Origin: an uncultured Candidatus Saccharibacteria bacterium
Lineage (GTDB): Bacteria; Patescibacteriota; Minisyncoccia; Phycocordibacterales; PALSA-1337
Length of the DNA stretch: 37,008 nt
Assembly (NCBI GenBank): GCA_964602725.1
Contig: CAZRRZ010000003.1
Location: 1 to 37,008 of the forward strand
Direction of reading: 5' to 3'
How positions within the stretch are numbered: position 1 is the stretch's first letter; each line of letters opens with the position of its first letter. A model generated the notes under the pieces. That model saw only the letters and a list, made by a program, of their open reading frames with translations. It was not told where the DNA came from and ran no database searches. Position numbers and translations under genes: made by a program. Shown piece by piece: positions 17,347 to 34,156 of the stretch.

Positions 17347-17353
17347 AAATAAG

Positions 17354-17427
17354 CTGGAGGAGTTGGGATCGAACCAACCTATTCGGAATTAACAGTTCCG
17401 CGCAGTCACCCTGATTGCTATCCCCCA
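17354..17427 (-). tRNA. tRNA-Asn (anticodon GUU)
   Basis: Hand fold of the minus strand: acceptor UGGGGGA/UCCUCCA, D arm GCAA-UCAGGGUGA-CUGC, anticodon stem CGGAA/UUCCG with loop CUGUUAA, variable AAUAG, T arm GUUGG-UUCGAUC-CCAAC, discriminator G. U1-A72 and G73 match what I recall for E. coli tRNA-Asn. No CCA is encoded. Confidence 0.85.
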
Positions 17428-17874
17428 CTAAGCTATCTCCAATCCTTGTTCTCTTAGTAACTCTTTTTCCATCTCAATGAGCTCTAATTCTTTTTTCAAC
17501 ATTTCATTTCTTTCCATCATTTCTTCAGCGGAATAATAGATGGTTTTTTGTTGATAGTCCTCACCAAGAAAAGACCTAATAAAAGATTCACATTGTCCGA
17601 TACATTCCTTGGGCAAAGGATTGGGAAACTCTGGCTTTATTATCTCTTTGATCTCACCATATTTCAACCGCACCGCTGCTTCTCTTTTCCTCAAAGCTAT
17701 ATAAGCTGGATTGCTCCAGTCTTTAATCTTCTTTTGATACTTATGACTCTTTTTGTATTGAGTGAGCTTTACATTCTTAAATTCTTCTTGCTCGCCATCA
17801 ATATCATCTTGCTCATGCCTTGGGCGCATTTTAGAGAATGCTGAAAAAAAAGCTAGTGTGAGAGATTTAAGCAT
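17428..17874 (-). CDS. Hypothetical protein, 148 aa (positional candidate for small terminase)
   Basis: The stop abuts tRNA-Asn and the gene lies directly upstream of terL. The protein is charged with a C-terminal coiled coil (MLKKELELIEMEKELLREQ). Confidence 0.45.
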   Translation of the reverse strand: MLKSLTLAFFSAFSKMRPRHEQDDIDGEQEEFKNVKLTQYKKSHKYQKKIKDWSNPAYIALRKREAAVRLKYGEIKEIIKPEFPNPLPKECIGQCESFIRSFLGEDYQQKTIYYSAEEMMERNEMLKKELELIEMEKELLREQGLEIA

Positions 17875-23030: not shown

Positions 23031-23474
23031 TCAATCTTTTCTCAAAAGCATCGCCCAATACGTTTGAGATCTGGGACCGTCTTTTGTCAAGTGCCCAAAA
23101 AGTGGCTCCCATTGTGGCATTAAATCAAAAACACGTTGAAGTTTGATGTCATGGTTGTTCCATTTAAGTGCCATTAAAGCATTAGGTTTTGTAACCCTAT
23201 GAGCTTCCTTCGCGGTTCCTTCAATTGTTTCTAATATTTCCTTAGTTGTATGATAACCATATCGCTTACTCATATTGGAATTTGGGCCGCAATTCATGTG
23301 TGGCGGATCAAAAACCACCAGGTCCCAATCTGTAGGAAATAATTTCCCTAGATTTGTCGTGTTTATACAATAATCCGGGTTTACTTCCATTCTCCTGTCT
23401 AAATATAAAGCAAGCGGATGTTTTTTGTTGAACCATATAGCTCTATTACCCGCTGATAAATCTAAAATTTTCAT
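23031..23474 (-). CDS. Small SAM-dependent methyltransferase (DPPH motif), 147 aa
   Basis: Motif I is ILDLSAGN and motif IV is LVVFDPPH. RVTKPNALMALKW is also typical. The target (DNA or RNA) is undetermined. Confidence 0.6.
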   Translation of the reverse strand: MKILDLSAGNRAIWFNKKHPLALYLDRRMEVNPDYCINTTNLGKLFPTDWDLVVFDPPHMNCGPNSNMSKRYGYHTTKEILETIEGTAKEAHRVTKPNALMALKWNNHDIKLQRVFDLMPQWEPLFGHLTKDGPRSQTYWAMLLRKD

Positions 23475-23863
23475 TTTTGAACTAGCTCAAAATGATACAG
23501 GTCTTGAAAGGTATCATCAGACGGATTTAGGTTTTGGTTAAAGTCTCCACCCCAACGTAACGTTACACCCATTCTATCAGCTGTCCCCATCACAAAACCT
23601 GCCACATAAATGAGCTTCTTGACATTTTTTATTTCGTAGGGAATTGGGCTGATGTCGATAGCAAGGGAAGGTTTGGAGTTATGTTTAGAATTGGGCCATG
23701 GCAGTTTTGACGCTCCGCTTGAATAGGCTTCGTTTTGAGCTAACTCATCTCTATGACCGCACACTACCATAAGCGGAATAGATTTAGAAACTTCTAGGAT
23801 AACCTTCCCTAAATCTTGATGAACAGTACTCAATTTATCTTTACTAGCTTGCGATAATTCCAT
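23471..23863 (-). CDS. Peptidase M15-family cell-wall hydrolase (endolysin candidate), 130 aa
   Basis: VVCGHRDELAQNEAY, SKHNSKPSLAID and WGGDF...DLYHFE fit the zinc-binding H/D/H layout of VanY/M15 L-Ala-D-Glu or D-Ala-D-Ala peptidases. There is no signal peptide. Confidence 0.75.
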   Translation of the reverse strand: MELSQASKDKLSTVHQDLGKVILEVSKSIPLMVVCGHRDELAQNEAYSSGASKLPWPNSKHNSKPSLAIDISPIPYEIKNVKKLIYVAGFVMGTADRMGVTLRWGGDFNQNLNPSDDTFQDLYHFELVQK

Positions 23864-23896: not shown

Positions 23897-24778
23897 ATGA
23901 CACATGACTATTCAGAAATCACCGGAGAAATTATGCTTCCGACTCATCCTAGCCCTAGTGTTCATGCTTTGGCTTTGCGCGATTCTAAACAAGAAAGCGC
24001 CTTAATTATTCAAGGACAATCATGGGAAGCTATGAAACAACAGGCTTCACTTCTTGTAAAATCCGGCTTTCTTCCAGAGAGTATTAAAACAACCGAACAA
24101 GCTATAGCGATCGCAATCAAAGGGCATGAGATTGGTATGCCAATGATGCAAGCTTTTTCACAGATTCATGTCATCAAAGGCAAACCAACTATATCAGCGG
24201 AGGGAATGAATGCGCTCATCAGAAGAAATTGTCCCGGTAGTAAAATTGAGATTATCAGAAACGATTCCTCTGTTTGTACTATCAAAGCAACCCGACCTGG
24301 CGAGCGAGCTTTTGAATACAGCTATACAATCGAGGATGCAAAACGGGCAGGTATTGCAGGAAATCCAAGTTGGTCCAAATACCCTGACGCTATGCTTTTC
24401 GCCCGTTGTATTTCAGCTATCGCCAGAAGGGTGTTTCCCGATTGCCTTTGCGGGATCTCCTACACCCCGGAAGAGCTCGGGGCCGAAGTTAACGAAGAAG
24501 GCGAAGTCATCAAAATCGAAGCAACCCAAGCGCAAGAAACCCAAAAAAAAGTTGGTGATACCGTGGAACATCCCATAGTGATCAAAAAGGACGAAAAATA
24601 TAATTCCAATGATCAAAAACATCGAGATTATCTAAAAAAAGAAGCGCTAGTATTTGGGATTTCAGACAACAGATCTTTATTGCAAATTAGCGAATATTGT
24701 AAAGACGTAGAGCTTACCCATCTAGGTGAAGCAATAGGGCATTACCTGGATGCAAGTATTCCACCCGAAGGAGGATAG
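23897..24778 (+). CDS. recT: RecT/Red-beta-like single-strand annealing protein, 293 aa
   Basis: GMPMMQAFSQIHVIKGKPTISAEGMNALIRR and WSKYPDAMLFARCISAIARRVFPDCLCGISYTPEELG fit RecT-family patterns. The ATG at 23933 has a better SD (GGAGAA) and may be the true start. Confidence 0.6.
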   Translation: MTHDYSEITGEIMLPTHPSPSVHALALRDSKQESALIIQGQSWEAMKQQASLLVKSGFLPESIKTTEQAIAIAIKGHEIGMPMMQAFSQIHVIKGKPTISAEGMNALIRRNCPGSKIEIIRNDSSVCTIKATRPGERAFEYSYTIEDAKRAGIAGNPSWSKYPDAMLFARCISAIARRVFPDCLCGISYTPEELGAEVNEEGEVIKIEATQAQETQKKVGDTVEHPIVIKKDEKYNSNDQKHRDYLKKEALVFGISDNRSLLQISEYCKDVELTHLGEAIGHYLDASIPPEGG

Positions 24779-26379: not shown

Positions 26380-26636
26380 CTCAAGAAGACAGAGAAGAAT
26401 TATTACTTCAAATTGAAAAGCTTCGTGGACGGTTTGATATTATGGTTCCGGTGGCTATTCTTCAAAGAGGGCTTCACAGACTTTTCTCTGAGATTGACGC
26501 ACTGGATGAACATACTGACCAACTCGATACGGCTTGCTACGCCCTTGATGAAAAGTTGTCAGAAGTAAAGGCCGCGTATACAGAGCTTCAAAAAGAGTGT
26601 CAAACATTTAAGGATAGACTCTATCCAGATTTATAG
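26376..26636 (+). CDS. Hypothetical helical protein, 86 aa
   Basis: ATGA coupling links it to the upstream gene. Its stop codon overlaps the 3' end of the antisense tRNA. Confidence 0.5.
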   Translation: MTQEDREELLLQIEKLRGRFDIMVPVAILQRGLHRLFSEIDALDEHTDQLDTACYALDEKLSEVKAAYTELQKECQTFKDRLYPDL

Positions 26637-26707
26637 TGGCGGATGGATTTGAACCACCGACTTTCCGCTCATGAAACGGACGCTCTGCCCGGCTGAGCTA
26701 CGCCACC
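26634..26707 (-). tRNA. tRNA with CAU anticodon (elongator Met or Ile2-type; not initiator)
   Basis: Minus-strand fold: GGUGGCG-UA-GCUC-AGCCGGGCA-GAGC-G-UCCGU-UUCAUGA-GCGGA-AAGUC-GGUGG-UUCAAAU-CCAUC-CGCCACU-A. The 1-72 pair is G-U. The anticodon stem has no GGG/CCC run, and no CCA is encoded. Confidence 0.85.
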
Positions 26708-26952
26708 GTTGCAACTAGAGCCCCGCGCGACTAAGGCCCAGCTTTTCTCGTCGCAACCCTTCTAGATGGTAGCTGACCTACGCCTGTGCATGTCTCCAGA
26801 AATACTGTTGGTGCGCTGTCACTATGCCCGTCGACATATAGATCGCCTACGTTCACTCCAACAGCCCTCCGTAGGCTAGTTATTTCAGCGTTGGCCCACC
26901 TCGAACGGTATTACTACCTCGGTGAGCCTTCCCATGCCGTCTAGTTGCAACC
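26708..26952 (-). ncRNA. Unclassified structured RNA element (245 nt) abutting tRNA(CAU) +1
   Basis: The track shows no ORF on either strand. My hand count gives 134/245 G+C. A 12-bp closing helix pairs 26940-26951 with 26708-26719. The hairpin at 26893-26928 has a GUAA tetraloop and a tandem G.A/A.G beside a 4-nt bulge. Several further helices exist, and G-U pairs plus GNRA loops occur only in the minus-strand transcript. Confidence 0.5.
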
Positions 26953-27014
26953 TTATTTATAATCATTTAAGCTTGATCACACCAGATCCAAATTGATTTT
27001 CAAGGGGTTCATGT

Positions 27015-27218
27015 ATGTATTTTCGCATCCACAGAGACATCGATGGTCATGCTTTTAGAATTCGTAAAGTTGTTCTTGAGCTCTTTAGAGACGATGGAAC
27101 TTTAGTAGATCGACGACGTATGTTCGCCGGACTATTCTTCGCAAAACGCCTTGCAAGAAAACAAGCGCGAATGGCAAAAATTGGCAAAATCATGGTAGCG
27201 TGTAGCTATAAATTATGA
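27015..27218 (+). CDS. Small basic protein, 67 aa
   Basis: An AAGGGG RBS precedes the start. The protein is Arg/Lys-rich and is the first gene of the accessory operon. Confidence 0.5.
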   Translation: MYFRIHRDIDGHAFRIRKVVLELFRDDGTLVDRRRMFAGLFFAKRLARKQARMAKIGKIMVACSYKL

Positions 27219-27331
27219 TTCCATCTTCGGAATATTTAGTACTCATTTACATGATTATAAGCGCCTATTTATTCCCTGTTTTTGCTATTGCTACATTTTT
27301 ACTGTTAAAGTATGGAGATAGGAAAGATTAA
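27215..27331 (+). CDS. 38-aa single-TM mini-protein (not in ORF track)
   Basis: ATGA coupling occurs at 27215-27218 and TAATG coupling at 27329-27333. The translation is MIPSSEYLVLIYMIISAYLFPVFAIATFLLLKYGDRKD. Confidence 0.5.
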   Translation: MIPSSEYLVLIYMIISAYLFPVFAIATFLLLKYGDRKD

Positions 27332-28275
27332 TGCGTCACGAAAGTCATGACAGGGATAAGTTTCACGTCGTTACGATGATTTCTAACCCAGTAAGGTATG
27401 AATCAAGATATGAGCTTTATAAAGTCTTTGCAGCAAAGATGGCTAGTGCCGGTGTCAACCTCACAACCGTGGAATTGCAACTTGGGGATAGACCTTTTGC
27501 TATTACGGATAGAGATTGTGCGCGCCATATTCAGCTCAGAGGATGGGACGAATTATGGCACAAAGAGAACTGTCTCAACATTGCGATTCAAAGCTTGCCT
27601 TCAGATTGGGAGACCGTGGCTTGGATCGACGCTGACGTGGAATTTATCCGTCCCGATTGGGTGGAAGAAACAATCAATCAACTCCAAGTCTATCAAGTTG
27701 TCCAAATGTTCGAAACCGCCATTGACCTTGGTCCATCCGGAAAAACCATTGCAACCCACAAATCTTTCATGAGTCAATATCTGGAGAATAAATCAATGCA
27801 TCCAGAAACAAGCTATCAAGAATGGCATCCGGGTTTTGCTTGGGCCGCAAGGAGAGAGGCTATTGATGGAATGGGGCAACTTTACGAGAGAGCAATCCTT
27901 GGAGCAGGAGACCGCCATATGGCTCTGGCGTTTGTTGGAAAGGCAGAGTGCTCCTTTGTCCATGACATGCAATCAGAGTATGCTCAAGATATCCTTAGGT
28001 TCCAAGATCGATGTCACCATACGATCCGCAAGGATGTCGGAGTTGTGCCAGGCACTATTGTCCACAATTGGCACGGCAAAAAGCGGGATAGACGTTATTT
28101 CGACCGATGGCAAATCCTTATCAATAACGATTACAAACCGCACCGAGATATTAAAAAAGATTCATTTGGTGTATTCAATTTTGTAGACGATCATTCGCCA
28201 CGCTTCATCAGGCTTCGCGACGAGATACGTCATTATTTCCGACAAAGAAATGAAGACAGCGTGGATCTCGAGTGA
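27331..28275 (+). CDS. Glycosyltransferase (GT-A-like, DxD = WIDADVEF), 314 aa
   Basis: FHVVTMISNPVRY, a DAD motif after a beta-strand, and HNWHGKKRDRRYFDRWQIL fit a pattern I recall from phage and virus glycosyltransferases. Confidence 0.6.
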   Translation: MRHESHDRDKFHVVTMISNPVRYESRYELYKVFAAKMASAGVNLTTVELQLGDRPFAITDRDCARHIQLRGWDELWHKENCLNIAIQSLPSDWETVAWIDADVEFIRPDWVEETINQLQVYQVVQMFETAIDLGPSGKTIATHKSFMSQYLENKSMHPETSYQEWHPGFAWAARREAIDGMGQLYERAILGAGDRHMALAFVGKAECSFVHDMQSEYAQDILRFQDRCHHTIRKDVGVVPGTIVHNWHGKKRDRRYFDRWQILINNDYKPHRDIKKDSFGVFNFVDDHSPRFIRLRDEIRHYFRQRNEDSVDLE

Positions 28276-28447: not shown

Positions 28448-29530
28448 ATGCTTAAGTCATTAGTGTTGGTTTTTTGCATCGGGTCATCTATTGCCCTGGC
28501 GTCTACATCAAAATTCCCCATCATAAAAGGAGAAAACGGAAAAAGATACCATACGGGTCTGCTTCATAAGCCACAAGCTTACAAAGGACTCGGAGAAACA
28601 CACGTCAAACTTGCAGATTGTGAAAATCTTCCAGAAGAATTTGATTTGCGAAAACTCGGAACTGTTACAGCTATCAAAGATCAAGGATCTTGTGGGTCAT
28701 GTTGGAGCTTTTCTAAAACAGCTTCTCTTGAATCCGCGATTTTGGCAAACGGCGGCAAGTCCATGGACCTGTCAGAAAAAGAATTACTCACATGCGATAG
28801 AAATAACTATGGATGTGACGGCGGTTTGCTCAACCAAAAAGAATACCAAGTAGTTCACGGTCAAGGACTTGAGTCTGATTTCCCATATTCGCCTTCAGAC
28901 GGACCATGCAAAAGCATTCCTGTTGCCGTTAAAGCAACTGAGTTTGTAATGGTTGGATCTTCTAACAGATCTCCAAACCTCAAAGAAGTGAAATGCGCGC
29001 TGTATAAATCTCACACCGTGCCATGGATAACAGTCGCCGCAGAAGGAAACTGGGGTCAAGCGCCTAGTACAGAAGACACTATGTTTAGGTCTTGCGGACG
29101 CGGTCAAACCAACCACGCCATCGGTATCGTGGGATGGAAAAAAATCAACGGCAAGGAAGGTCTGATCATCAGAAATTCTTGGGGCATGGGTTGGGGAGCA
29201 AAAGGCTACGCTGTTATGCCGCTCGGTTGCGATAACCTCGGTGAAGAAGTTGCATACATCATGACGGACGCGATGCCATGTAAACCACCCGTTTTTCAAC
29301 TTCCAGCGCATATAGAAATCTCTCCGAATGTAGAAGTTATGCTTGGAGTTAAAGAGCAATCTGGCGTGGAATATACCTGGTATTCAGCTGATAAAGAGAT
29401 TGGCAAAGGGTCTATGATCTATGTCATTCCATCTGAAGACACAATCTATAAACTCGTAGGAAAAACCGCTTGCGGTACTGTTGAAAGTTCAGTAAAAATT
29501 AGCGTGATTAAGGCCAGCCAAGCGCTTTAA
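28448..29530 (+). CDS. Secreted papain-family (C1) cysteine protease with C-terminal beta-domain, 360 aa
   Basis: An AAGGAGG RBS precedes the start. The signal peptide is MLKSLVLVFCIGSSIALA. The mature N-terminus reads LPEEFDLRKLGTVTAIKDQGSCGSCWSFS (Gln/Cys), followed by NHAIGIVGW (His) and IIRNSWGMGWGAKGY (Asn/Trp). About 90 extra C-terminal residues follow. Confidence 0.9.
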   Translation: MLKSLVLVFCIGSSIALASTSKFPIIKGENGKRYHTGLLHKPQAYKGLGETHVKLADCENLPEEFDLRKLGTVTAIKDQGSCGSCWSFSKTASLESAILANGGKSMDLSEKELLTCDRNNYGCDGGLLNQKEYQVVHGQGLESDFPYSPSDGPCKSIPVAVKATEFVMVGSSNRSPNLKEVKCALYKSHTVPWITVAAEGNWGQAPSTEDTMFRSCGRGQTNHAIGIVGWKKINGKEGLIIRNSWGMGWGAKGYAVMPLGCDNLGEEVAYIMTDAMPCKPPVFQLPAHIEISPNVEVMLGVKEQSGVEYTWYSADKEIGKGSMIYVIPSEDTIYKLVGKTACGTVESSVKISVIKASQAL

Positions 29531-30150: not shown

Positions 30151-30298
30151 TTATCTCGTTAAATTGTTCTTCTGTTTTTCCAAAATGGTTTGTTGCAACA
30201 CCCTCGATAGATTTCCGGCATACACATGTCTTAGGATGTCCGGATGCTTGAATCGAAAAAATTGCCAAAAGTCCTTGAGCTATTTTTTTATCAATCAT
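30128..30298 (-). CDS. Small protein, 56 aa (not in ORF track)
   Basis: ATGA coupling links it to the fibre gene stop (30295-30298). The translation is MIDKKIAQGLLAIFSIQASGHPKTCVCRKSIEGVATNHFGKTEEQFNEIIESAHQD. Confidence 0.4.
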   Translation of the reverse strand: MIDKKIAQGLLAIFSIQASGHPKTCVCRKSIEGVATNHFGKTEEQFNEIIESAHQD

Positions 30299-32070
30299 AT
30301 TAAGTTCACCCAGCTTCCTGCTTCATAGCCTCTAAATTTTCCAAGGTCAGTGTTGTATATCATCATACCATCAACTGCGGTTAATGCGGCTTCCTCAGCA
30401 TTAGTTAATCGTGGCAACAGGAATGCTCTATCTGTTCCGCCAATTTCGAGTCCTACACTGGCGTTGCTTACTTTTCCTGTAGGAGTGTTGATAGCCAATT
30501 TGTACATTGAGTTATCAATGTCTGAAGCAATCTTTACGCCCCAATGGTTGGTTGCAAAAACACCTGCACCGCCGACTTCATGATAAAAGCCAGTCGCGTT
30601 CGTGGTAGTTCCGGTATATCCGGCGTTTATCAATAGAGAGTTAACACCGCGCCATTCTCCAACAGTAAAATCATCCATAAAAATGGCGCCAGCCGTCAGG
30701 GCATTTAGTTGGTCCATTTGACCATGTCCATGACATTGACCAGCAAAAGCAACCATGTTTACTCCTAAACCAGATGGCCCGAGAGCAACGCTAGATCCAG
30801 CGTTTCCAAAGTTTACATCCGGGCTAAGGATGTTCATTAAAACATCTGTGCCCGTGATTGCTGTTGAATCCGGTGTGCTGTAAGCGGTAAACAATACGTG
30901 TTGACTTTGAATTGTTTGTCCGCTTTGAGCTACCATGGTGCCGCTAACACTAAAGCGAACCCCGTCAATACTTGCGCCAGCTTCTTTTCCGTCCGCGGTT
31001 AAACCGCCTAATTGCAAAACAGAAAGATTAGTTGAAGTGCCAGTGACTTGACTCAAACTTCCTGAATATAAAGTTACATCGGCGTCGCCGCCCGCAATGG
31101 TTGGATTTGAAGAAAATCCGGATACGGTACCATGTGAGGTTGTTATGTTGGTATTAAACGCAAATCCGTTCATGTAGCCAGTTGGCGACATCGTGGTAAC
31201 CGTTCCGCCGCAACTGAAACCATTGAACCCAGAGTTTCCTAAAAAAGTGGTAATGGTCGGATTTAGGTTAAAACCCTGGTAGTTGTTGTTGTTTCTGATT
31301 GACGCAATTTGTGGGTTTGCTGCGTAACTGTTCCAACCATCAATCTCACATTCGATGTTTGCAAAATCACCGAAAATAGTAGAGAACGTGGTTCCAGTTG
31401 AGGTTGTAGCCGCTGAATGCGCGTGCGGTTGAAAAATATAACCCTGAAATCCGCGAGATAAATTGACGTTATCGTTAATGTCGCCAAAAATGAAATAACC
31501 GTAATATCCTCCAACATCGATAGGATCAGTTCCGTTTCCTATGTTTGAATAAGAACTGTTTAATGTCAAAGTTCCGGTGTCGCCGGTTCCAGTAAGTGTA
31601 AATCCAGAACTAATAAGAGTCCCTAGTGATCCGTTAGTGCCGATAGCAAATCCAGTACTAGTTGGGTCAACAGTTGCTTGAACGTTGAGAAAATTATATG
31701 TGGACGTTGGAGATGCAAGCGTAGGGATCAAATTTGCTTGTAGGTTATGAACAGTATAGCCACCAGTGTTGTCCACTGATTGGTCTAAAATTACATTCAT
31801 GCCCAAGGTGTTAGTGTAATAATTCCATCCAGGGAGGACACTTAAATCACCAGTGGGATCAACCCAAAATGCAAAGCTTGGAGAATTTCCAGGCACAGGA
31901 AGTAATGGAGCAGAGTTTGTGATGGTAGTTATTCCGCCACCGCTTACAATGCTTATTCCCGTTCCCGCATTTATAAACTGGTTTGCAGACGTATCGCCGT
32001 TGATAGAAAGAATGTTTCCAGTACCGCCCCCACCGCCTTCGACTGGGAGAAAAATATACCCGCTGCTCAT
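30295..32070 (-). CDS. Tail fibre / receptor-binding protein 2, 591 aa
   Basis: The N-terminus GGGGGTGNILSINGDTSANQFINAGTGISIVS is shared with fibre 1. The body is beta-rich and G/T/S/N-rich. The C-terminus reads AFLLPRLTNAEEAALTAVDGMMIYNTDLGKFRGYEAGSWVNLI. Confidence 0.75.
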   Translation of the reverse strand: MSSGYIFLPVEGGGGGTGNILSINGDTSANQFINAGTGISIVSGGGITTITNSAPLLPVPGNSPSFAFWVDPTGDLSVLPGWNYYTNTLGMNVILDQSVDNTGGYTVHNLQANLIPTLASPTSTYNFLNVQATVDPTSTGFAIGTNGSLGTLISSGFTLTGTGDTGTLTLNSSYSNIGNGTDPIDVGGYYGYFIFGDINDNVNLSRGFQGYIFQPHAHSAATTSTGTTFSTIFGDFANIECEIDGWNSYAANPQIASIRNNNNYQGFNLNPTITTFLGNSGFNGFSCGGTVTTMSPTGYMNGFAFNTNITTSHGTVSGFSSNPTIAGGDADVTLYSGSLSQVTGTSTNLSVLQLGGLTADGKEAGASIDGVRFSVSGTMVAQSGQTIQSQHVLFTAYSTPDSTAITGTDVLMNILSPDVNFGNAGSSVALGPSGLGVNMVAFAGQCHGHGQMDQLNALTAGAIFMDDFTVGEWRGVNSLLINAGYTGTTTNATGFYHEVGGAGVFATNHWGVKIASDIDNSMYKLAINTPTGKVSNASVGLEIGGTDRAFLLPRLTNAEEAALTAVDGMMIYNTDLGKFRGYEAGSWVNLI

Positions 32071-32071
32071 A

Positions 32072-32437
32072 TCAAACTCCCTTTATGCATTGAAATGCGT
32101 TGAGGGTGCCGGTGTCGCCACCAGCGGGCGCGTATCTAAGTCTCACATAAGGGGCGGCCGTTCTAGTCATGTCCCAAATGTAATCACCCGCACCCGTTAT
32201 AAGTTTTGGGCTATCTAAAACTGTTGTCCATGTTCCTGCATTCAATACATTTCCTAGTGGATCTAAATTATAGCTCACTGAAGCTTCTAAGCTTAAAATT
32301 CCGCCAAGCGTTCCTGATGTAGTATAAATGGCTTGAATCATGTATCCCCACATTTGTTCAAGTCTCACTACGGTACTAACAATGGTTGAGGACATATCAC
32401 CGTTAACTACTATTGGAATGCGAATTGCTTCAAGCAT
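32072..32437 (-). CDS. Small beta-protein paired with fibre 2, 121 aa (paralogue of 34156..34548)
   Basis: Landmarks shared with the paralogue are VNGDMS, NAGTW and Y(V/A)(R/I)RL(R/I)Y. Spacing to the fibre gene is 1 nt. Confidence 0.6.
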   Translation of the reverse strand: MLEAIRIPIVVNGDMSSTIVSTVVRLEQMWGYMIQAIYTTSGTLGGILSLEASVSYNLDPLGNVLNAGTWTTVLDSPKLITGAGDYIWDMTRTAAPYVRLRYAPAGGDTGTLNAFQCIKGV

Positions 32438-32446
32438 GTTTAATCC

Positions 32447-34156
32447 TTATAGATTCAAATATGTTGTAAATGTTGTGTGATATCCGCCGCCAGCCGTCAA
32501 ACCTGAACCAGAAGCCCAATTTGAAGCGTCAAATTTGGTAACAACAGCACTTCCATCACTGGAAACTTTTAGGATTCCGGCAATTTCAATGCCGCCACCA
32601 TAAATGCTCATGCAAGATTGATTAGGGCCGCCACCCGTATAACAAAAACGTGTTGGAAAAGTAGATGTCGGAATGGTTGCGTTGAGGGTTGCTGTTGCCG
32701 TTACGGTGTCAGATGAAAAGTATCCAGTAACAACTTTGTTATTTCTTTCAAGAACAAGAGTTGCTGTTGCTCCAGCTAATGCGCCACCTAAAGAGATGCC
32801 GGTTATTGCGCCATAACTTTCGTAGACACTAACCACTCTCCAATCGGCTGGAGTTGCAGGAGTAGCAACCATAGCCTCGAGTATCACTTGGCCAATTTGA
32901 ATGACCGCGTCACCTTGAGAGCCGGTAAATGCTGTGCTGTAAAGAATTGGATTGCTATCAGCCGCTCTAATTGTGAGATCAAAGTTTGTTGTGTTCTCAA
33001 GAGTCCAAACTTGACCCTTAGCCACACCAGTAGAAGGCAAATCAACATTTCTGGCAGCGCTTAGATCAAAAATTTGAATGTGATTATCAGACGAAACAAG
33101 CGTTGTGGTACCAGCGCCTTCAGTAGCCCGAACATTTCCAGTTACAGTTGGTGAGTTTGTTGTCCAACTTACTCCTACGGCTGTTCCGGAATCTGCGACA
33201 AGAACCTGTCCATCAGTTCCAACAGGGACTCTTGCGTTAACAGTTGAAAATCCAACTAAATCACCTTTGGTTGTTAAGGGTGACAAAGCGTTGAAAGCAG
33301 GATTTGCGGTTGTTTGACCAGTACCGCCATTTGCAATCGGTAGAGCGCCAGTAACTTTTGCCGTTAAATCAATTGTACTGTTTGCAATTTTAGAGTTTGT
33401 AACAGCAAGGTTTGCGATAGTAGCCGCAACTGATCCAGGTCCGGTTGCCGTTACGTCTCCAGTTAAAGCAGTGATATAGCTGCCAGCGGCTTGCTTAGAG
33501 TTAAACGTTGTCCAGTCTGTTGATGACAAATAACCGTTTTGACTTCCGTTAGCAACTTGCTGAGAAATCGAAGTACCAGAGCCAATAACAGATCCAGTGC
33601 CACCCGTTATGGTGATTCCATCTGTTCCAACATCCGTTAAGTTTCCAATCGTCAAAGCAGCTTGTTTGCCGTTGAATGTCGACCAATCTGTTGAAGAAAG
33701 GTAACCGTTGTGCGTGCTATCAGCCACTTGTTGACTTATGCTTGTACCCGAACCGATTACAGATCCGGTTCCGCCAGTGATAGTTATGCCGTCAGTGCCA
33801 ACATCCGTAAGGTTGCCGATTGTGAGAGCAGCTTGCTTTGCGTTAAAGGTGCTCCAGTCTGTGCTTGAAAGATAACCGTTGTGAGTTGAATCAGCGACAT
33901 GTTGAGAAATACTTGTGCCCGCTCCAACTACCGCACCAGTTCCGCCGGTGATGGTAATCCCATCGGTTCCGACATCAGTCAGGTTTCCATATGATACTGT
34001 GCTGTTAATTGTGTGCGTATTAGCGACGCTGTTAACCGATATTCCTGTTCCACTAGCAATAAACTGAGCGGCTGTTGTATCGCCGTTGATCGATGTGATT
34101 CCACCGCCACCGCCGCCGCCACCGCTGAGTGCTGGATATGTAGCAAAAAATGACAT
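32447..34156 (-). CDS. Tail fibre / receptor-binding protein 1, 569 aa, with 3 x 57-aa tandem repeats
   Basis: The N-terminus GGGGGGGGITSINGDTTAAQFIASGTGISVNS is shared with fibre 2. The repeats contain NGYLSSTDWSTFN(A/G/S)K, a fibre-repeat-like motif. Confidence 0.8.
   Translation of the reverse strand: MSFFATYPALSGGGGGGGGITSINGDTTAAQFIASGTGISVNSVANTHTINSTVSYGNLTDVGTDGITITGGTGAVVGAGTSISQHVADSTHNGYLSSTDWSTFNAKQAALTIGNLTDVGTDGITITGGTGSVIGSGTSISQQVADSTHNGYLSSTDWSTFNGKQAALTIGNLTDVGTDGITITGGTGSVIGSGTSISQQVANGSQNGYLSSTDWTTFNSKQAAGSYITALTGDVTATGPGSVAATIANLAVTNSKIANSTIDLTAKVTGALPIANGGTGQTTANPAFNALSPLTTKGDLVGFSTVNARVPVGTDGQVLVADSGTAVGVSWTTNSPTVTGNVRATEGAGTTTLVSSDNHIQIFDLSAARNVDLPSTGVAKGQVWTLENTTNFDLTIRAADSNPILYSTAFTGSQGDAVIQIGQVILEAMVATPATPADWRVVSVYESYGAITGISLGGALAGATATLVLERNNKVVTGYFSSDTVTATATLNATIPTSTFPTRFCYTGGGPNQSCMSIYGGGIEIAGILKVSSDGSAVVTKFDASNWASGSGLTAGGGYHTTFTTYLNL
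33476..33988 (-). repeat. Three in-frame 171-nt tandem repeats inside the fibre 1 gene
   Basis: The units lie at 33818-33988, 33647-33817 and 33476-33646. The peptides are nearly identical (GNLTDVGTDGITITGGTG.V.G.GTSISQ.VA....NGYLSSTDW.TFN.KQAA) but many synonymous codons differ. Confidence 0.9.

Follow-up and report, generated by a model that had tools for sequence, protein, structure and literature searches.

What occupies the G+C-rich gap that directly precedes a tRNA gene of an uncultured phage? The question concerns positions 26708-26952 of the window, by which the whole stretch of DNA analysed here is meant, a complete 37,008-nucleotide (nt) contig of an uncultured phage. In an earlier inspection of this DNA (below called the preliminary description), the segment was regarded as a structured RNA made from the strand of the adjoining tRNA(CAU) gene and as a candidate for something undescribed. 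Comparison with metagenomic phage sequences leads to a more specific answer. The 244-nt segment 26708-26951, on the minus strand, is predicted to be a gene for a folded non-coding RNA, and it probably belongs to a family of RNAs, 140-280 nt in length, that is found in many uncultured phages unrelated to each other.

Homologues in metagenomic phages

Patterns taken from the window alone returned nothing or only chance 14-mers, and a megablast search of the window against 50,697 GenBank phage records gave no match. The first homologue, at 2298-2478 of a 35,985-nt Logan contig (L114), was reached by way of relatives of a neighbouring gene for a 314-amino-acid (aa) protein, using nhmmer and alignment. 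A pattern scan with the blocks common to the window and L114 yielded the second one, L115, from IMG/VR. These three sequences share CGGC(G/A)UGGGAAG, CUGGAGACA(C/U)GC and the hairpin loop AGUCGCGC, the last of these lying beside the 3' strand of the closing helix P1. Scanning with CGGCRTGGGAAG-N40-70-CTGGAGA gave 53 viral loci containing about 20 unique true members, and a scan with the 15-mer CGGCGTGGGAAGCTG gave at least 120 matches, through which members carrying the CUAGAGA variant of the second block (motif 2) were added. Full members defined as unique number at least 40, and 41 loci were surveyed for neighbours. Metagenomic phage contigs hold at least 50 distinct members, and the A+T content of the phages concerned ranges from 39 to 66 %.

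A covariance model, R1, was built from 13 compact members, the window copy and L114 being left out. In the member loci it recognised 49 sites at 38-121 bits, it gave L114 a score of 68 bits, and it revealed a further copy in the phage of L340-L345. No match was obtained in 868 kb of unrelated viral loci. Other routes were less productive. Scans of metagenomes and genomes with an over-strict two-block pattern (motif 2 plus AGTCGCG) gave seven matches, all by chance, this being the only pattern with which bacterial genomes and prophages were scanned. Profiles of the short blocks were uninformative in nhmmer, no relatives were found of the 128- and 86-aa proteins encoded next to the RNA in the window, and the RNA is absent from the closest relatives of the 314-aa gene (L001-L005, L110-L113 and L346-L348).

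Architecture and covariation of the family

The members share the following elements.

P1: closing helix, at least 7 base pairs (bp) in 87 % of the copies
Linker: CG, between P1 and P2
P2: 5 bp, GCGUG/CACGC, nearly fixed in sequence
Internal loop: invariant and asymmetric, GGAAGCU opposite U(G/A)GAGA
P3: helix that follows the internal loop
V1: variable apex, 30-128 nt
V2: second variable region, in typical members 39-164 nt long and in L274, the member with the lowest score, 346 nt
P5: 5-bp stem (36 of 40 members) with an 8-nt loop, usually AGU(C/A)GCG(A/C)
P1 3' strand: directly after P5, without a spacer

Two stretches carry most of the fixed sequence of the P2 region. Motif 1 is invariant throughout the family as CGGCGUGGGAAG, and motif 2 as CU(G/A)GAGACACGC.

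The pairing scheme was evaluated on two alignments. In alignment A2 (MAFFT, 23 sequences), 92.5 % of the paired cells hold a base pair versus 66.6 % after shuffling, and the covariation score is 0.599 versus 0.158, a value reached by none of 500 shuffles; controls with slid partners score 0.06-0.11. In the model-fitted alignment A4, with 48 distinct sequences, the corresponding figures are 93.0 versus 71.0 % and 0.553 versus 0.159, again with 0/500 shuffles reaching the observed score. Changes on both sides of a pair were seen at 21 of the 26 pairs of A2, including all ten of P1, five of the six of P3 and all five of P5; in A4 they occur at each of the eight P1 pairs. P2 is almost invariant, and its sole double change is found in the window. 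A mutual-information scan over anchored blocks of 35 members placed exactly P1, P5 and P3 at the top and gave no extra covarying pairs, and a pseudoknot partner for the P5 loop was not found beyond chance across the family. The strand is fixed by the G-U pairs, which exist on one strand only across the family. Taken together, the comparative data show a conserved, strand-specific RNA fold, and the window copy is predicted to carry it.

The variable region V2 cannot be aligned between subgroups. By eye, V2 of L202 (5206-5374) and L218 (717-873) resembles an H-type pseudoknot, with a CCUCGG...CCGAGG pairing and with GGGCGAA/UUCGCCC as against GGGUGGAA/UUCACCU, and it shows a compensatory change; the arrangement in L267 is similar. 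Two phages carry the RNA twice. Tandem copies with the same P1 sequence and the same spacer lie at 2108-2268 and 2303-2478 of L247 (6605-6765 and 6800-6975 of L339), and in the upstream one an A-U pair replaces the otherwise invariant G-C pair closing P3. The two copies in L291 are 1 kb apart.

The copy in the window

In the window the elements are arranged as follows, in the order in which the minus strand would be transcribed.

26940-26951, minus strand: 5' arm of the closing helix P1 (GUUGCAACUAGA), 12/12 pairs with 26708-26719
26928-26939, minus strand: motif 1, CGGCAUGGGAAG, which comprises the linker (CG) and the 5' strand of P2 (GCAUG, 26933-26937) and runs into the invariant internal loop
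26894-26927, minus strand: hairpin at the P3 position, stem GCUCACC/GGUGGGC, inner stem GGUA/UACC and loop GUAA, present in both the minimum-free-energy and the centroid fold
26800-26893, minus strand: window-specific insertion of about 95 nt, which separates P3 from motif 2 and contains helices (c) and (d) of the preliminary description
26788-26799, minus strand: motif 2, CUGGAGACAUGC, with the internal-loop 3' side UGGAGA and the P2 3' strand CAUGC (26788-26792)
26738-26787, minus strand: variable region V2, 50 nt
26720-26737, minus strand: P5 hairpin, 5-bp stem GCCUU/GGGGC with two U-G pairs and 8-nt loop AGUCGCGC (26725-26732), adjoining the P1 3' arm without a spacer
26708-26719, minus strand: 3' arm of P1 (UCUAGUUGCAAC), the final base of which precedes G1 of the tRNA
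26634-26707, minus strand: tRNA(CAU), without a spacer to the RNA (ARAGORN; Rfam tRNA model, 63.9 bits)
26612-26626, minus strand: hairpin GGAUAG-AGU-CUAUCC, 8 nt past the tRNA, read from the sequence and possibly the end of the transcription unit

The last of these, the hairpin at 26612-26626, was not called in a terminator scan.

The general character of the segment is much as it was first described. Its G+C content is 134/245 (54.7 %), as against 42.8 % for the window as a whole. The minus strand gives the better fold, at -89.1 kcal/mol (z = -2.65) compared with -71.8 kcal/mol (z = -1.79) for the plus strand, and the U-G pairs of P5, like many G-U pairs of the family, are possible in the minus-strand RNA only, which fits a structured RNA encoded on the same strand as the tRNA. 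The claim that neither strand holds an open reading frame (ORF) was right as to credible genes and wrong to the letter: three mechanical ORFs of 37-52 aa overlap 26708-26952. These do not appear to be credible genes, because the homologues preserve helices and not reading frames.

The individual helices had a more mixed fate. The perfect 12-bp closing helix (a), ending one base before G1 of the tRNA, is entirely Watson-Crick paired and corresponds to P1 of the family, and the base of hairpin (b) sits at the position of P3. All further complementarities that had been listed exist as written: 7/7 pairs between 26870-26876 and either 26845-26851 or, with one G-U pair, 26776-26782 (c); 7/7 between 26858-26864 and 26805-26811 (d); 6/6 with one G-U between 26750-26755 and 26726-26731 (e); and 8/8 with one G-U between 26750-26757 and 26708-26715 (f). 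The stretch GUCGCG used in (e) is the conserved loop of the P5 hairpin. The best complement of this loop elsewhere in the same member has a mean length of 5.98 nt, compared with 5.84 nt in shuffled sequences; in the window the values are 6 and 6.12. As the conserved loop lacks a family-wide partner better than chance, (e) and (f) are rejected, and the two alternative conformations that had been built on them find no comparative support. Two conserved helices were absent from the original list, namely P2 and P5. Hairpin (b) has its G-A/G-A pairs beside a 4-nt bulge in the window, the bulge of a canonical kink-turn being 3 nt long. Its apical sequence and the insertion at 26800-26893 are shared by no homologue found.

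The window RNA retains all core elements of the family in addition to the insertion. Its closing helix is 12 bp long and is flanked by the CG linker on the 5' side and, without a spacer, by P5 on the 3' side. The three-motif pattern CGGC(G/A)UGGGAAG, CU(G/A)GAGACA(C/U)GC and AGU(C/A)GCG(A/C) occurs once in the window in this order and in 0/100 shuffles, a test that is not fully independent, the motifs being partly derived from the window copy. P2 reads GCAUG/CAUGC and fits GCRUG/CAYGC; at pair 17-162 of A2 an A-U replaces G-C, the only double change at that pair, and this is read as a compensatory change. P3 is the deviating part. In the family it typically starts with a G-C pair beside the internal loop and encloses the variable region. 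The window copy is the only sequence that does not pair at columns 27-153; in the place of P3 it has a locally closed hairpin, which leaves the variable region outside and is followed by the insertion, so that V1 measures 128 nt, compared with 30-89 nt in the other surveyed members.

Several results speak against membership of the window copy. Model R1 assigns it 10.8 bits (E = 0.012 over 1.6 kb with the filters off) and gives no match to it with default filters. Moreover, R1 pairs the 5' arm of P1 with an internal UCUAGA in V2 and not with the true 3' arm. Both the low score and the wrong pairing are attributed to the insertion of about 95 nt. Because the score is only 10.8 bits, formal model-based membership is weak. 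The copy is accordingly described as a divergent, outlying variant that probably belongs to the family on account of its motifs, its helix layout and the compensatory pair. UCUAGA occurs twice in the window RNA, within V2 (26760-26767) and in the P1 3' arm (26708-26719), which provides the P1 5' arm with an alternative partner of 6-8 bp; this pairing would leave P5 outside the fold.

Comparison with known RNAs

With Rfam 15 at gathering thresholds, only the two tRNAs of the window were detected. When matches at E up to 10 were admitted for 26550-27100, only the tRNA and its reverse strand appeared and none fell on the element; for nine other members, at E up to 5-10, nothing was found over the element. 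The models covered include those of HDV-like/theta, twister, twister-sister, hammerhead, hatchet and pistol ribozymes, tmRNA, RNase P, 6S, Y RNA, ROOL and GOLLD. Thus the element is not accounted for by a known Rfam family, and its early designation as a candidate for something undescribed is supported. BLAST searches with five members, the window copy among them, against the same GenBank phage records, and with two members against plasmids, gave only tRNA or chance matches. A literature search by motif strings and topic retrieved no description. Large automated catalogues of structured-RNA candidates from phages exist (PMC10690425). The family is rated, from sequence and text comparisons, as a new RNA class in the sense that it occurs in no curated family or searchable paper text, and it may sit unnamed in such a catalogue.

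A resemblance to small group I introns of tRNA genes (IC3, of the Azoarcus/Anabaena type) had been suggested on the basis of the 11-nt string ACUAGACGGCA, which we take to recall J8/7-P7 of these introns; the size of about 245 nt is also similar. The resemblance did not hold. The string is not conserved, the homologues keeping only CGGC(G/A)UGGGAAG, and the element has no P3-P9 core. A group I intron, permuted or not, was rejected as a candidate: Intron_gpI (RF00028) gives no match up to E 10, the tRNA is intact and no gene is interrupted. The 14-mer ACTAGACGGCATGG was present at 103 viral loci, and no intron was seen in any of the 15 furthest-extending matches that were checked.

In layout, the family recalls the tRNA cloverleaf. 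Both have a closing helix (at least 7 bp in 87 % of the copies of the family), a 2-nt linker and a last 5-bp hairpin that adjoins the 3' strand of the closing helix, potentially giving a 12-bp coaxial stack of P5 on P1, and both have a side arm that at 5 bp could touch the hairpin loop, as the D loop and T loop do. The family differs from tRNA in lacking a T-loop/D-loop consensus, in the size of the loop (8 nt, not 7) and in its middle region of at least 39 nt, and in none of the members tested was the element called as a tRNA or tmRNA by ARAGORN or the Rfam models. Junction-type riboswitch aptamers and small self-cleaving ribozymes such as twister-sister are similar in another respect: they possess a closing P1, several helices that meet at a junction, and variable stems that may be absent, and most of their invariant bases lie in an internal loop and a hairpin loop that are equally far from the junction. 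The family differs from these in having no consistent gene association and no Rfam match, and the window copy in having no expression platform.

Among phage RNAs that are linked to tRNAs, theta/HDV-like ribozymes near phage tRNAs and the stable species 1 and 2 RNAs of the T4 tRNA cluster share a transcript with tRNAs and are trimmed by the machinery that processes these. Theta ribozymes adopt a small double-pseudoknot fold on the 3' side of tRNAs, and the species 1 and 2 RNAs have no sequence in common with the family, in which only 3/41 loci are tRNA-linked. Closest in kind are orphan structured RNAs of phages and bacteria such as ROOL and GOLLD, which are often tRNA-adjacent (Rfam; cryo-EM, PMC12286853). 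Like them, the family is phage-borne, strongly structured, supported by covariation and in some loci located beside a tRNA gene. At about 580-800 nt they are much larger than the 140-280 nt of the family, with which they share neither sequence nor structure.

Genomic context

The preliminary description had raised the possibility of a tRNA-specific leader or processing ribozyme. A tRNA is located within 40 nt of the RNA in only 3/41 member loci, so this is not supported: it lies at 0 nt in the window, a tRNA-Asn follows 7 nt downstream in L193, and a tRNA-His precedes the RNA by 34 nt in L336. The tRNA(CAU) of the window has a G1-U72 wobble pair, G37, which is unusual beside a CAU anticodon, and no encoded CCA. 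A tRNA-Asn(GUU) is found next to or near the family RNA in L193, L184 and L310, and also in the relatives L003 and L112 of the window phage.

The genes downstream of the RNA copies are unrelated to each other, and no conserved protein partner adjacent to the RNA was found in the surveyed loci. Genes that recur within 5 kb code for terminase, portal, small-terminase-like and ParB-methylase-like proteins, in three to four loci each and without a fixed orientation. A convergent ORF follows 11/42 copies, including ORFs of 302, 500 and 262 aa. The window RNA is antisense to its neighbouring genes and heads a small unit of its own, running from the RNA through tRNA(CAU) to the hairpin. An arrangement like that in the window is seen in the L340-L345 phage, where the RNA is antisense to both neighbours and lies beside a gene for a 313-aa protein that is 71 % identical to the 314-aa protein of the window. 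Near-perfect promoters aimed at the first base of P1 are present in L181 and L191, strong sigma-70 promoters being found in only 2/40 copies. At least six T residues within the 8 nt right after P1 occur in 12.5 % of the copies and in 0.9 % of control positions.

What the RNA may do

The reading preferred here, with a confidence that goes a little beyond even, is that the RNA is stable and stands alone, that a conserved partner (a factor of the host or a small ligand) would recognise its invariant surface, and that it is not a tRNA leader. It is favoured because the core is invariant across phages of 39-66 % A+T, because there is no conserved gene partner, because several copies lie antisense to transcription units or at their ends, and because a few copies are linked to a tRNA. 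As P2 and P5 are 5 bp long as a rule, both invariant loops would be placed at equal height, 5 bp from the junction; docking of the P5 loop on the internal loop is probable, and the two would then make up a single conserved surface or pocket. Position +1 is where RNase P cuts every pre-tRNA. In an RNA-tRNA transcript of the window such a cut would fall exactly at the end of P1, releasing the mature 5' end of the tRNA and an RNA with a flush, helix-protected 3' end, both ends of which would be locked in the helix. In other phages the same 3' end is often followed by a run of U residues.

A number of observations weigh against a stand-alone RNA of this kind. A co-directional ORF precedes 36/42 copies by a few bases, mostly with gaps of less than 20 nt, and 29/42 copies precede a co-directional ORF, from which it follows that many copies must be cut from operon transcripts or act in cis. 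On the minus strand, no consensus promoter was detected upstream of the window copy. As the internal loop and the P5 loop are both invariant, their proposed docking would leave no covariation signal. Finally, invariant bases to the number of about 30 are met with more often in ribozymes and riboswitches than in protein-binding RNAs.

A broader possibility is entertained here tentatively, as one that is rather improbable on balance: a new functional RNA class with a chemistry of its own, aptamer or ribozyme, in which GGAAGCU / U(G/A)GAGA and the AGU(C/A)GCG(A/C) loop would form the pocket and through which phages of many different hosts would sense or alter a universal host component. If so, the window copy would show how such an RNA can be delivered, as a tRNA-linked stable RNA freed by RNase P.

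Of the two specific forms that this could take, a riboswitch-like sensor is unlikely. Its ligand, for instance a nucleotide signal of the state of the host, would be bound in the pocket made by the internal loop and the P5 loop, and formation of P1 would control termination or translation downstream or, in the window, processing of the fused tRNA. About 30 invariant bases set among covarying helices and optional inserts are the usual look of an aptamer; many of the 29 copies in front of a co-directional ORF lie within 10-70 nt of it, with a Shine-Dalgarno sequence, and the enrichment of U runs directly after the P1 3' strand points the same way. So do the tandem copies of L247/L339, tandem arrangements being known for some riboswitches. 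The neighbourhoods do not conform to this picture: the downstream genes share no common family, 11/42 copies face a convergent gene, and the copies of the window and L340 are antisense to both neighbours. In the window, G1 of the tRNA follows P1 immediately, and an expression platform would have no space.

A new self-cleaving ribozyme or RNA-processing module, which would cut polycistronic phage transcripts and, in the window, the RNA-tRNA precursor, is decidedly unlikely. The conservation pattern and the intergenic location in phages are like those of twister-sister, hatchet, pistol and hammerhead ribozymes. The internal loop lies one helix from a multi-helix junction and is accompanied by a conserved hairpin loop, and the copies are tightly packed between co-directional ORFs. 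However, the ribozyme families of Rfam give no match even with E up to 10, no computational result speaks for catalysis, and the RNA meets the tRNA where a variable helix ends, outside the conserved core, a place at which RNase P suffices to explain processing.

Very little probability is given to a purely cis-acting transcript element without a separate life as an RNA, such as a 3'-end stabiliser, a terminator or insulator, or a put-like modifier of RNA polymerase. It would explain why 36/42 copies follow a co-directional ORF so closely and why U runs are enriched after P1, and several copies lie near module borders, beside terminase and portal genes, although their orientation relative to these genes is inconsistent. 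A stabiliser or terminator needs no set of about 30 unpaired bases that stays invariant across phages of such different A+T content, and the window copy heads its own tiny unit. Lastly, a tRNA-specific 5' leader, a degenerate group I remnant, a host-derived fragment or a small inverted-repeat mobile element is largely refuted and can hardly be believed: the resemblance of ACUAGACGGCA to tRNA introns, the 12-bp terminal inverted repeat with its palindromic core and a G+C content above that of the phage are met by a string that is not conserved, the missing match to Intron_gpI, homologues that mostly have no tRNA, BLAST searches in which no similar DNA was found in GenBank phages or plasmids, only chance matches of the stricter two-block pattern in genomes and metagenomes, and a P1 sequence that varies yet stays complementary, for which reason the ends are taken for those of an RNA helix and not of a transposon.

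It is rare for a new RNA class to combine dozens of invariant bases with strong covariation, and past ones proved to be riboswitches, ribozymes or parts of ribonucleoproteins. As far as searched, this family is confined to uncultured phages and hence belongs to an unexplored part of phage biology. The window copy offers a concrete experimental handle, as a self-contained antisense unit from which RNase P should release the RNA. The compact members of about 140 nt (L267, L310 and L182) are suited to probing, ligand screens, cleavage tests and structure work.

Other features of the window

The large minus-strand ORFs at 30295-34153 gave no PHROG match. The second tRNA of the window, an Asn(GUU) at 17353-17427 (minus strand), directly adjoins the ORF at 17428-17874. 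At 2-3 kb from the RNA, the window codes for a RecT-like annealing protein, a DNA methyltransferase fragment and an endolysin (region 23897-24775, plus strand, and 23031-23860, minus strand). The 314-aa protein (27331-28275, plus strand) has no Pfam or PHROG match of its own, but metagenomic phages encode over 3,000 homologues, a few of which are flagged as PF00535 glycosyltransferases. It is followed at 28448-29530 (plus strand) by a phage-encoded 360-aa protein of the papain family (Peptidase_C1) with a hydrophobic N-terminus; L112 carries a Peptidase_C1 gene at the same place, after its homologue of the 314-aa gene.

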